Source of the DNA: Candidatus Bathyarchaeia archaeon
Lineage (GTDB): Archaea > Thermoproteota > Bathyarchaeia > 40CM-2-53-6
NCBI GenBank assembly: GCA_050013255.1
Contig: JBEKFP010000001.1
Coordinates: forward strand, 1,120,001 to 1,184,000
Reading direction: 5' to 3'
Length of the DNA: 64,000 nucleotides
Position 1 is the first letter of the stretch, and each line of letters begins with the position of its first letter. The notes beneath the pieces are model-generated. The model ran no database searches, was not told the origin of the DNA, and was given only the letters and a program-made list of their open reading frames with translations. Shown piece by piece: positions 5,301 through 33,267 of the stretch. Made by a program: the position numbers and the translations under genes.

Positions 5301-5408
5301 TGGTGGACCGGGCGGGATTTGAACCCGCGACCTCCCGCATGCCAAGCGGACGATGTGGTCGCATCGTGTTGATTCATCGATGCTCATACCAGGCTGATCT
5401 ACCGGCCC
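5301..5408 (-). tRNA. tRNA-Ala(GGC) with a 30-nt D-arm intron (22/23)
   Basis: After removing a BHB-like intron: GGGCCGG-TA-GATC..GATC-G-TCCGC-TTGGCAT-GCGGG..TTCAAAT..CCGGTCC-ACCA; G3:U70 Ala determinant; CCA encoded. Confidence 0.92.
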
Positions 5409-12370: not shown

Positions 12371-12501
12371 GCGGCCGTAGTCTAGCCTGGTCTAGGACGG
12401 GAACAGCAACGGAAGTTTGCTGACGCAAGCCTGCCACGCTTCTGATCGCCCCTTAGTAAGGGCGAGAAGACGCCCGGGTTCAAATCCCGGCGGCCGCACC
12501 A
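12371..12501 (+). tRNA. tRNA-Gly(GCC) with two introns: 12403-12428 (29/30) and 12445-12471 (45/46)
   Basis: GCGGCCG acceptor; spliced anticodon arm GGAGC-CTGCCAC-GCTTC; BHB with CTTC/GAAG central helix; CCA encoded. Confidence 0.92.
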
Positions 12502-12712
12502 CAACCCTCGCACACAGACTAAAACGGCCTGGATCCGTTCTTGTCGTTAGGGGAAGTATCACATAACGACCCCTTTACTACAAGGCTTCCGCGCGCCATA
12601 ATTTTGCGCGCAAGCTGGCGAACTATGCGCAATTCTCCGTGCGACCCTCGCACTTCTAGGTATGCATGTGATTTGCGCGCGGTCCCTTGCGCTAATCCTT
12701 CGCGGATGCCAA

Positions 12713-12752
12713 GTTCAAATCCGGTCTCCCGTAACACTAAGAGCACGCACAA
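12713..12752 (+). repeat. Degenerate tRNA-3'-end plus CACAC-arm site (site H)
   Basis: GTTCAAAT-CCGGT-CTCCCGT-AACA-CTA-AGAGCACGCACAA; same register as sites A and G2. Confidence 0.6.
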
Positions 12753-12790
12753 AAGAGATTTAAAGCGAGGATGACCTGAGGAGTATCCGG

Positions 12791-13183
12791 ATGCTTATGG
12801 TCTCTGAGAAGGTTTTGCATTTTCAGGGTAAGAATAAGGATTTGAAACAGGTAGCTGACCAGATAGTGCAACAACTCCAATCGGAGGGTTACAAAGTTCA
12901 ATCCACGTCGCCACCACTAGGAATACTTATCCAGGCTCAGAAGGCGGGAATCTTGCGGGATATCATTACAGCAGATCGAGCATTCACGATAATGATAGCG
13001 GGGCAACCTAATGACTTCACAATACGTGTTGGTATTGGAAAGTGGATTCAGAACATAGCGGTGGCTGCCGCCGAAGCGTTGCTTCTCTCAGTATTATTCC
13101 TCGCAGTAGATGTACCCGAGATGCTCTGGACAAGGCATGTTGAAGGCGAGATAATCAAGGAGATAACGCAGATCGTAGGCTAG
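12791..13183 (+). CDS. Hypothetical protein (130 aa, one hydrophobic segment)
   Basis: Clean ORF with upstream GAGGAG and TATA-like TTTAAA. Confidence 0.75.
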   Translation: MLMVSEKVLHFQGKNKDLKQVADQIVQQLQSEGYKVQSTSPPLGILIQAQKAGILRDIITADRAFTIMIAGQPNDFTIRVGIGKWIQNIAVAAAEALLLSVLFLAVDVPEMLWTRHVEGEIIKEITQIVG

Positions 13184-13232
13184 TCTCCTAGTTCAAGCAA
13201 ATTCATTTGTAGGCGTTCAACCGGCAATTTCA

Positions 13233-13263
13233 GTGCGTGTAGATCGGGCATATTACACGCCCG
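13233..13263 (-). repeat. Degenerate reverse-oriented CACAC-arm site (site I)
   Basis: GTGCGTGTAGATC matches the reverse arm GTGTGTGTGGGTC at 10/13 and forms a hairpin with TACACGC. Confidence 0.4.
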
Positions 13264-13474
13264 ATAGAGGGTGAACAACGATCCGCTGCCCAAATTGCAG
13301 TCTGCCTATGGATTTTGTTGGTAGGTACATACTTGACGTGCGATTGGAAAGCGCGGCCCCCTCACACCTGAAGGATTTCGAGGCCTGGCGATGCGAAAAA
13401 TGCGGAAAGCTCTTCGTGGACCCTGGCGACGGGAAGCCGCACGAAACGGAACATTTGCCTGAGGATGTCTTACC

Positions 13475-13867
13475 CTAGTCGCCCCGGAATTTGTCCGCTA
13501 TTGACTTTAATTCTCCGTGGTCCAAGACTTGGATTTTGGTTTCTAGCCTAACGTCCAAACCGATCTGGCGGAGTAACCCGTATAGTTGTTCTCCCGTAAT
13601 CTGGCCTTTTACCCGGCCAAGGCGGACAAGTTCGGCCAGTTCTTGAAAGAGCCGGTCCGCTATTGTAGGATACTGCTGCCTCGTCGCATGGTAAACTTCC
13701 CAGGCGCGTCCCACGAAAACTTTCTCTAAAACCCTTGCAGGCTCGAGTTTTCCAGATGTGGCTGTGGTTTCCTCTTGCTTCGCGTTCAGCCTCTTCTGCA
13801 TCGCCGCTAACCGTTGGCGTTTCAATCTCTCAAGTTCCGAATCGTCGCTCATGTTTGTCACCTTCAT
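13475..13867 (-). CDS. PDCD5-like (double-stranded DNA-binding domain) paralog
   Basis: D.ELERLKRQRL..MQ; L.ELVRLGRVKG.ITGEQL..LL. Confidence 0.7.
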   Translation of the reverse strand: MKVTNMSDDSELERLKRQRLAAMQKRLNAKQEETTATSGKLEPARVLEKVFVGRAWEVYHATRQQYPTIADRLFQELAELVRLGRVKGQITGEQLYGLLRQIGLDVRLETKIQVLDHGELKSIADKFRGD

Positions 13868-31490: not shown

Positions 31491-31613
31491 GGGCTCGTAG
31501 CTCAGTCTGGATAGTGCTTGCAGGTTGAGCATCTAAAGCACAGGCCCTCTAAACGCTTTGTAAAAAGCGGGGGACGCCTGGGGTCCGGGGTTCGAATCCC
31601 CGCGGGCCCGCCA
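31491..31613 (+). tRNA. tRNA-Arg(TCT) with two introns: 31515-31536 (22/23) and 31553-31575 (38/39)
   Basis: BHB motifs GGAT/ATCT and CTCT/GGGG; spliced arm CAGGC-CCTCTAA-GCCTG; TTCGAAT T-loop; GCCA end. Confidence 0.9.
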
Positions 31614-33193: not shown

Positions 33194-33267
33194 CTTTAGT
33201 GGTTCACCCACACAAAACGGTACGAACAACGATTCAAGTTACGTGGCTCGCACCATTAAACCGACAC
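33194..33267. repeat. Composite site C: degenerate reverse symmetric type (33194-33213) plus forward tRNA-end type (33231-33267)
   Basis: CTTTAGTGGTTCACCCACAC ... GATTCAAGT-TACGT-GGCTCGC-ACCA-TTA-AACCGACAC. Confidence 0.7.

Follow-up and report, generated by a model that had tools for sequence, protein, structure and literature searches.

The window, i.e. the whole stretch of 64,000 nucleotides of archaeal DNA that was analysed, encodes a tRNA-Gly(GCC) with an enoyl-CoA hydratase gene as its 5' neighbour and, on its 3' side, a 130-aa open reading frame (12791-13183), a small zinc-ribbon ORF, a PDCD5-like gene and Nep1 (Table 1). The Rfam tRNA span covers 12371-12498, with the anticodon GCC and two inserted stretches of 34 and 28 nt, and is immediately followed by an encoded CCA (12499-12501). 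The introns kept ARAGORN from detecting any tRNA in the window: the three tRNA genes located here (5304-5408; 12371-12501; 31491-31610) each contain one or two introns at non-canonical positions. In the whole genome to which the window belongs (hereafter G000, with contigs C1, C2 and C3; the genomes of relatives are referred to as G001 to G022), just 19 tRNAs exceed the Rfam threshold. The zinc-ribbon ORF (13270-13478) was called from an ATG at 13308, and a conserved CPxC knuckle is encoded in frame before this ATG, directly after a TGA; its start is probably located upstream of the called one. This gene reads ATG-AAA-TGT-CC in G019, G016 and G013, versus ATC-CGC-TGC-CC in G000, G014 and G021 (ATC at 13281 in the window), and the latter form suggests either an ATC start codon or the loss of the first knuckle.

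Table 1. Features of the tRNA-Gly(GCC) locus, in window coordinates.
Feature	Position	Strand	Evidence
tRNA-Gly(GCC), with encoded CCA and two introns	12371..12501	+	Rfam RF00005, 40.7 bits
14-mer CGCACCACAACCCT: CGCA (end of tRNA body) + CCA + 7 nt	12495..12508	+	in register with the family CGCACCA+N7
Unit X, without gene: tip, ~195-nt linker, pad H, 14-mer	12509..12743	+	PWM 10.6 bits at 12707-12752
End tip of unit X, CGCACACAG	12509-12517	+	follows 14-mer CGCACCACAACCCT
Degenerate pad H	12713-12736	+	PWM
14-mer of H, CGTAACACTAAGAG	12730-12743	+	end of unit X
Unit Y, with cargo: left tip, TATA-like box, 128-aa gene, right tip	12744..13242	+	homology to the G011 copy
Left tip of unit Y, CACGCACAA	12744-12752	+	start of the sequence shared with G011
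TATA-like TTTAAA	12759-12764	+	sequence reading
Cargo gene, 128 aa (130 aa from start 12791)	12797..13183	+	purifying selection; no Pfam family
Right tip of unit Y, GTGCGTGTAG	13233-13242	+	tip PWM 8.2 bits; conserved in G014
Deletion junction	13243..13247	.	comparison with G014 and G021

The end of this tRNA gene and the DNA behind it contain sites of a family that is dispersed throughout the genome. An HMM seeded with six sites of the main island (31.7-37.3 kb of the window) detected 28 further copies on all three contigs of G000, the rebuilt HMM detected 64 copies at E < 0.01, and the total of similar sites in G000 amounts to about 90. The family consensus, ACGACGGTTCAAATTcCGtTGCcCGCACCA followed by 7 variable nt and CACACACAC, is composed of (i) a 'pad', which mimics the T-loop and the acceptor 3' strand of a tRNA with its CCA, (ii) a CGCA-starting 14-mer, and (iii) a CACAC 'tip'. 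The sites at junctions are imperfect palindromes, and each cassette has sites on either side; they look more like casposon-type insertion junctions than like the core sites of a recombinase.

A 46-column PWM was trained on 28 sites from elsewhere in G000, with none taken from 12-13.3 kb of the window. The tRNA-Gly end and its flank (12472-12517) score 25.5 bits, a value reached by 0 of 25.6 M dinucleotide-shuffled positions, and 25 bits or more occur at just 43 positions of 4.9 M in the genome. Site H (12707-12752) scores 10.6 bits, reached by 4 of the 25.6 M shuffled positions (about 2.5e-4 expected in the tRNA-Gly region), and at least 10 bits occur at 66 genome positions. A search of the 1.2-kb region with nhmmer returned the tRNA end (E 2e-5) and H (E 0.0065) and no other sites; its local alignment trims H to 6.5 bits, and the ungapped PWM is more informative here. 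The tRNA end and H, both far above the shuffled background against which the initial annotation had proposed to score such sites, are thereby shown to be members of the site family of the main island. The initial annotation, which had placed the tRNA end in this family and in the same register, and had described H as a degenerate tRNA end plus arm, was right on both counts, the same module being present with an intact H in G007. Its third site, a reverse arm called I, does not hold: the full PWM (-23.2) and the arm PWM (-13.7) are both at background, and neither gapped nor ungapped searches, nhmmer included, returned a full reverse site there. At I, the 10-nt tip 13233-13242 alone is above background (8.2 bits; 13.9 bits for the orthologous tip in G014), the 'TGAAC' that gave I its resemblance to a reversed tRNA end is part of the conserved upstream region of the zinc-ribbon gene, and the sequence from 13248 rightward is conserved chromosomal flank, which is also found at the empty site of G021. 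Of the pattern of forward site, gene and reverse site that had been described, the forward sites and the gene therefore stand, and the reverse site is reduced to a truncated tip next to a deletion junction.

With a PWM restricted to the pad, tRNA-Gly(GCC) ranks top of the 19 detected tRNAs (24.2 bits); the two other tRNAs of the window score below 0 with the PWM. The last ~25 nt of tRNA-Gly (12477-12501) are the natural docking sequence, or pad, that the family sites mimic, and it is the 14-mer at 12495-12508 that clean insertions of the family duplicate.

Comparison of 22 genomes of the genus showed that the tRNA-Gly and the zinc-ribbon/PDCD5/Nep1 block are conserved and that the DNA between them is variable. 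The gap between the tRNA-Gly and the zinc-ribbon gene is shortest in G021 (81 bp) and G010 (125 bp), two empty sites in which the tRNA is followed by its T-run and then by ordinary flank; next come G000 (~0.8 kb), G019 (~0.9 kb), G018 (1.4 kb), G014 and G017 (~2 kb each) and G016 (3.8 kb), followed by G022, G006, G013 and G015 (6-7 kb), G011 (11.7 kb) and G001 (~30 kb). Indeed, G014 has the stretch 12502-13247, G021 and G010 lack it, and at least 10 other species have different content in its place, so that the variable presence in relatives, proposed earlier as a check, is borne out. The tRNA 3' end provides a fixed insertion position with a CGCA-starting 14-bp target (12495-12508 in the window, with the tip starting at 12509). 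A family tip is located exactly 7 nt after the CCA of tRNA-Gly in seven other species, as in G000: G013 (48.6 bits by PWM), G011 (45.3), G015 (38.1), G016 (37.9), G019 (35.9), G014 (19.9) and, by pattern match, G022. The empty sites of G021 and G010 have no family tip at this position. The main claim of the initial annotation, a further mini-island that uses the site family of the main island, is upheld, and the link between the motif and a live tRNA is firmer than had been claimed there, because tRNA-Gly(GCC) is the natural target of the family across the genus.

At this tRNA in G016, the first unit (735 bp) contains one gene coding for a membrane protein, has inverted tips (CATACACAT ... TATGTGTG) and lies between 14-bp direct repeats (CGCACCACCAGACA / CGCACCACCAGACT) that start with CGCA and are identical at 13 of 14 positions. 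The 6.4-kb island of G006, for its part, ends in a 16-nt direct copy of the tRNA 3' end, behind which lies the flank known from the empty G010 site; tRNA-Gly is therefore used by elements of more than one kind. This island (within G006:C18:108150-115000), in which no integrase was found by Pfam, encodes a prolipoprotein diacylglyceryl transferase (Lgt) and a signal peptidase II, which together form a lipoprotein-processing pair of bacterial type, unusual for archaea.

In the window, two units follow the tRNA. The module of the first, unit X, is also present at another locus in G007 (79% identity), where the tip, the pad and CGCACCA are intact and where different cargo lies behind it; unit X is therefore a unit in its own right, and H is a mutated but real pad. 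In G014, unit X is kept in a more eroded state, and H has decayed further than in G000. A duplicated tRNA-Gly end (att-type) was considered as an origin of H and rejected, since dispersed copies of the family are closer to H (20/24 identical positions with the copy at C2:746754, versus 18/24 with the tRNA-Gly end, by manual count) and since a tip lies behind it. The linker of unit X (12518-12712) contains GC-rich hairpins, e.g. GCGCGC-N9-GCGCGC, is 79% conserved at the other locus in G007 and has a 93-nt deletion in G014. It could act as a small RNA or as a protein-binding platform of the mobile module.

The two ends of unit Y read CACGCACAA ... GTGCGTGTAG. Its copy in G011 shares 89% nucleotide identity and is located elsewhere, in another array, behind a junction-type site; homology between the two begins exactly at the tip at 12744. 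The closest relative, G014, is about 90-93% identical in this region and contains both units. There, the right tip is followed by a second unit of 1.17 kb and then by flank (TTTTCCCTCTCTTTTTTT...) that agrees with the empty site of G021. Both are missing from G000, whose right end is therefore a deletion junction. What once lay behind the right tip has been lost from G000, together with ~65 nt of the original tRNA-proximal flank. A second copy of the 14-mer is absent at the right end in G000 (13243-13247), and the 14-mer beside the right tip in G014 is in inverted orientation. The island of G000 is a fossil that it has in common with G014, with decaying sites, a deleted right end and a cargo gene kept by selection. 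The second unit of G014, which separates the cassette from the zinc-ribbon gene by ~1.17 kb within G014:C1:117200-121800, codes for a secreted protein of ~300 aa that is rich in Ser, Thr and Asn. Its left end belongs to the CACCTATGAAAG.TCTG type, which occurs also at position 33246 of the window and at three other sites in G000.

G004 and G012 have an in-frame stop ahead of MVSEK, so that translation of the cargo gene probably starts at 12797. The gene is under purifying selection (dN/dS of 0.09 versus G014 and 0.065 versus G011). The protein has no Pfam match; 3007 homologous clusters are present in a large protein collection, all labelled 'hypothetical'. An AF2 model (pLDDT 73) displays an N-terminal alpha/beta domain followed by one or more C-terminal hydrophobic helices, and a fold search returned weak and generic matches, to a BamC-N/KA1-like fold and to a domain that occurs fused to zinc ribbons or TIR domains. 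The TTTAAA box lies 27-32 nt upstream of the first ATG, the distance to be expected if it were the archaeal TATA box of a near-leaderless mRNA; the cassette likely carries its own promoter. Of the 22 genomes of the genus, 19 have homologues of the cargo gene, with one to three copies per genome and mostly at other loci; the gene is therefore not syntenically fixed, the alternative that the initial annotation had named. The cassette is 89% identical between G000 and G011 and the neighbouring core block 67%, which points to a transfer between species.

Elsewhere in G000, a 2-kb unit is flanked by a 14/14 repeat, CGCACCATTGATAC (C2:285246/287253). Genome-wide, adjacent sites in the same orientation share their variable 7 nt in 3 of 16 pairs, versus a background of ~15%, which is not significant. 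Many cassettes and Cas1 elements are themselves bracketed by inverted copies of the pad and 14-mer, and the flanking 14-mers are often inverted or unrelated. The comparison of G000 with G018 and G021 revealed units that are 93-97% identical, although neither of these relatives has a Cas1 match. In one of them (650 bp), the homology breaks exactly at the tip. In another (1.4 kb; C1:258034-259433), which is 97% identical in G018 and G021 versus ~80% for core genes, the shared stretch stops exactly after the 14-mer beside the right tip; the break points inside the site thus vary, and the 3' ends of the cassettes are ragged. The 1.4-kb unit looks like a recent transfer between species, into genomes without detectable Cas1. 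Two insertion polymorphisms between G000 and G014 (C1:342-347 kb) both lack a target duplication; in one of them, the pad is inside the inserted DNA, and the empty site has no tRNA-like target.

Casposons are large, self-replicating elements that have been proposed as ancestors of the CRISPR adaptation machinery. Two Cas1 ORFs (404 and 407 aa) are encoded in the genome of G000, with the casposase genes at C3:231179-232393 and C1:1333417-1334640. The Cas1 that was compared aligns from end to end with the casposase of Methanosarcina mazei (6OPM), C-terminal HTH included, with an E value of 3.9e-74, versus 6e-24 for its best CRISPR Cas1 match; opposite the two CGCA-reading arginines of 6OPM it has a His and a Gln, in a loop where the alignment is uncertain. 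No Cas1 gene is present in the island of the window, where the only gene of 12502-13247 is the 128-aa orphan, and this stretch is not an autonomous family-2 casposon, in which a Cas1 casposase and usually PolB lie inside the element. With both casposases of G000 as queries, tblastn gave no match in 12 loci retrieved for the tRNA-Gly interval from relatives. Thirteen genomes of the genus, G000 included, have at least 9 pad-type sites, and Cas1 was found in 6 of these 13; the seven site-rich MAGs without a Cas1 match, in which absence is unproven, include G011, G021, G013, G018, G019 and G016. G011 has 34 sites and no Cas1 match in a genome that is 99% complete, and G010 has Cas1 and zero sites. 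Among these MAGs, sites and casposase genes thus do not consistently co-occur.

The elements that carry Cas1 end differently, with CCGCCCCCGCCGCC on C3 and with pad-like ends, and they abut the same CGCACCA+N7+CACAC sites without clearly sharing the tips. In brief, a 9-kb segment (C3:228040-237140) with one casposase gene has inverted ends of ~45 nt, composed of GTGTGTGTGG, 6-7 variable nt, TGGTGCG and CCGCCCCCGCCGCC, together with several subterminal ACGACGGTAGGAAC repeats; its G-rich ends occupy the place of the pad, adjoining CGCACCA. A 6.3-kb segment (C1:1346600-1352945), which lies between inverted repeats GGGTTCTGACCCCAATTTACCGGTA.ATAT ending in outward-facing pads, adjoins a 15-kb segment with the other casposase gene.

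Taken as a whole, the tRNA-Gly locus is hypervariable in the genus, the cassette occurs at other loci in other species, and clean 14-bp repeats are present in relatives. Of the main claims on the family, those on the tRNA-like target, the 14-mer and the casposase homologue are upheld, and those on a resident Cas1 and on a simple duplication model are upheld in part. The reading that we favour, with a confidence only slightly better than even, is that the interval consists of Cas1-less derivatives of family-2 casposons moved by a casposase; our confidence is held at this level because of the site-rich genomes without Cas1, the inverted flanks, the unshared 7 nt, the pad inside an insert and the His and Gln residues. 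Accordingly worded, 12502-13247 would be an old, partly eroded stack of two non-autonomous units at the 3' end of a live tRNA-Gly(GCC): unit X would have brought a tRNA-like docking copy (pad H) and a 14-mer without any gene, and unit Y, directly behind pad H, would have brought its own likely promoter and the 128-aa gene that the host has kept. The mover would most likely be a family-2-type casposase (Cas1 transposase) supplied in trans, which would read ~25-30 bp of tRNA 3' sequence, cut on both sides of the CGCA-starting 14-bp target and join the CACAC.../...GTGTG element ends at the cut target. We infer that a casposase made these junctions, that unit Y was targeted to pad H and that a deletion removed the right-hand duplication.

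Family-2 casposons of M. mazei generate a 14-bp target site duplication whose invariant and essential 5'-CGCA overlaps the last 4 bp of a tRNA-Leu gene, need ~30 bp of upstream tRNA sequence and can form tandem insertions sharing a target site duplication (PMC4779613, PMC6977970). The locus studied here resembles them (tRNA-Leu; MetMaz1FA1A3-C2; PDB 6OPM) in several respects, namely the use of the 3' end of a tRNA gene as target, a 14-bp CGCA unit placed over the last 4 nt of the tRNA body with ~25-30 bp of upstream tRNA sequence as part of the recognised site, apparent terminal inverted repeats, tandem elements that share a 14-mer, and a full-length casposase homologue with a C-terminal HTH encoded in G000. 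It also differs from them: (i) the units are 0.2-2 kb long, without Cas1 or polymerase, and contain one cargo gene or none, (ii) the target is tRNA-Gly instead of tRNA-Leu and the ends are of the CACAC type versus ...TATATCCC (PMC6977970), (iii) many units have inverted flanking 14-mers and about half of the site-rich genomes have no Cas1 match, and (iv) copies of the target (pad and 14-mer) travel inside the elements, so that arrays can grow away from the tRNA. In the literature searched, we did not find small, enzyme-less, gene-carrying casposon derivatives that are stacked at a tRNA or carry their own target.

The main alternative for the exchange of cassettes, or a process acting in addition, is homologous recombination between site copies. 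It could be that the units were once placed by a transposase and that cassettes are now exchanged, and also reached tRNA-Gly, mostly through ordinary homologous recombination between site copies of 45-65 nt, which would act as portable homology arms, e.g. after DNA uptake, with no need for a dedicated enzyme. The ~90 similar sites of G000 would offer such arms, and this explanation agrees with the 97%-identical units shared with genomes without detectable Cas1, with the homology breaks at varying points in the site (at the tip or after the 14-mer), and with the ragged 3' ends of cassettes and their often inverted or unrelated flanking 14-mers. However, it does not account for tips placed exactly 7 nt from CCA in eight species, for clean direct repeats of 14 bp or for the fact that the sites copy the features read by casposases, and we regard it as rather unlikely.

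A further possibility, which we consider improbable, is that the sites are core sites of a recombinase, with GTGTG/CACAC arms around an asymmetric spacer, and that the units are integron-like cassettes with tRNA-Gly as primary attachment site. As in integrons (attI/attC, IntI), single genes lie between imperfectly palindromic sites that bracket each cassette, are stacked at one anchor and vary in content among strains; as in archaeal tyrosine-integrase elements, a tRNA 3' end is used and a partial copy of it can be found downstream, the pattern of the integrase-like 6.4-kb element with its 16-nt repeat at the same tRNA in G006. But only three tyrosine recombinase genes (PF00589) are encoded in G000, all of them remote from the site clusters and two of them beside other tRNAs, and no recombinase was found in the island of the window, in the scanned ORFs of the main island or in the G006 island. 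The combination that characterizes integrons, i.e. a linked IntI-type recombinase, an attI site and a common promoter, was not found, and neither was, in G000, the pair expected of an integrase-type element, i.e. an integrase gene and, at the distal boundary, the tRNA 3' end as a direct repeat. Unlike integron cassettes, the cassette seems to carry its own promoter and its sites are tRNA mimics with a 14-bp duplicated unit starting with CGCA, which fits casposase targets; unlike a tRNA-integrase element, H in G000 is a member of a dispersed ~90-copy family, followed by a CACAC tip, with no integrase. Finally, that there is no island at all, H and the tRNA flank resembling the motif by chance and 12791-13183 being an ordinary resident gene, would agree with the degenerate state of H and the background score of site I, but it is refuted by the shuffled and genome-wide PWM statistics, by the empty sites of G021 and G010 and by the occurrence of the same module in G007 and of the cassette in G011, both at other loci, and its probability is negligible.

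Under the favoured reading of casposase-moved, Cas1-less units, the tRNA-Gly locus supplies what the main island lacks, namely a live tRNA as the true target, and it adds empty and filled versions across the genus with at least one clean 14-bp duplication. It opens the casposase idea to a direct test in which the target (the last ~30 bp of tRNA-Gly plus 14 bp) and the ends are defined and the casposase is cloned, and it illustrates the spread, among uncultured archaea, of an orphan gene family that counts more than 3000 clusters. A broader proposal, which we put forward tentatively as possible rather than probable, is that tRNA-Gly(GCC) is the chromosomal 'leader' of a casposase-written gene-capture system, in which Cas1-less one-gene units, often with a portable target copy of their own, line up one after another from the tRNA onward. 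If this were true, these archaea would build gene-sized arrays by the chemistry of CRISPR spacer acquisition and exchange them between species, and the system would represent a living intermediate between casposons, integrons and CRISPR arrays.
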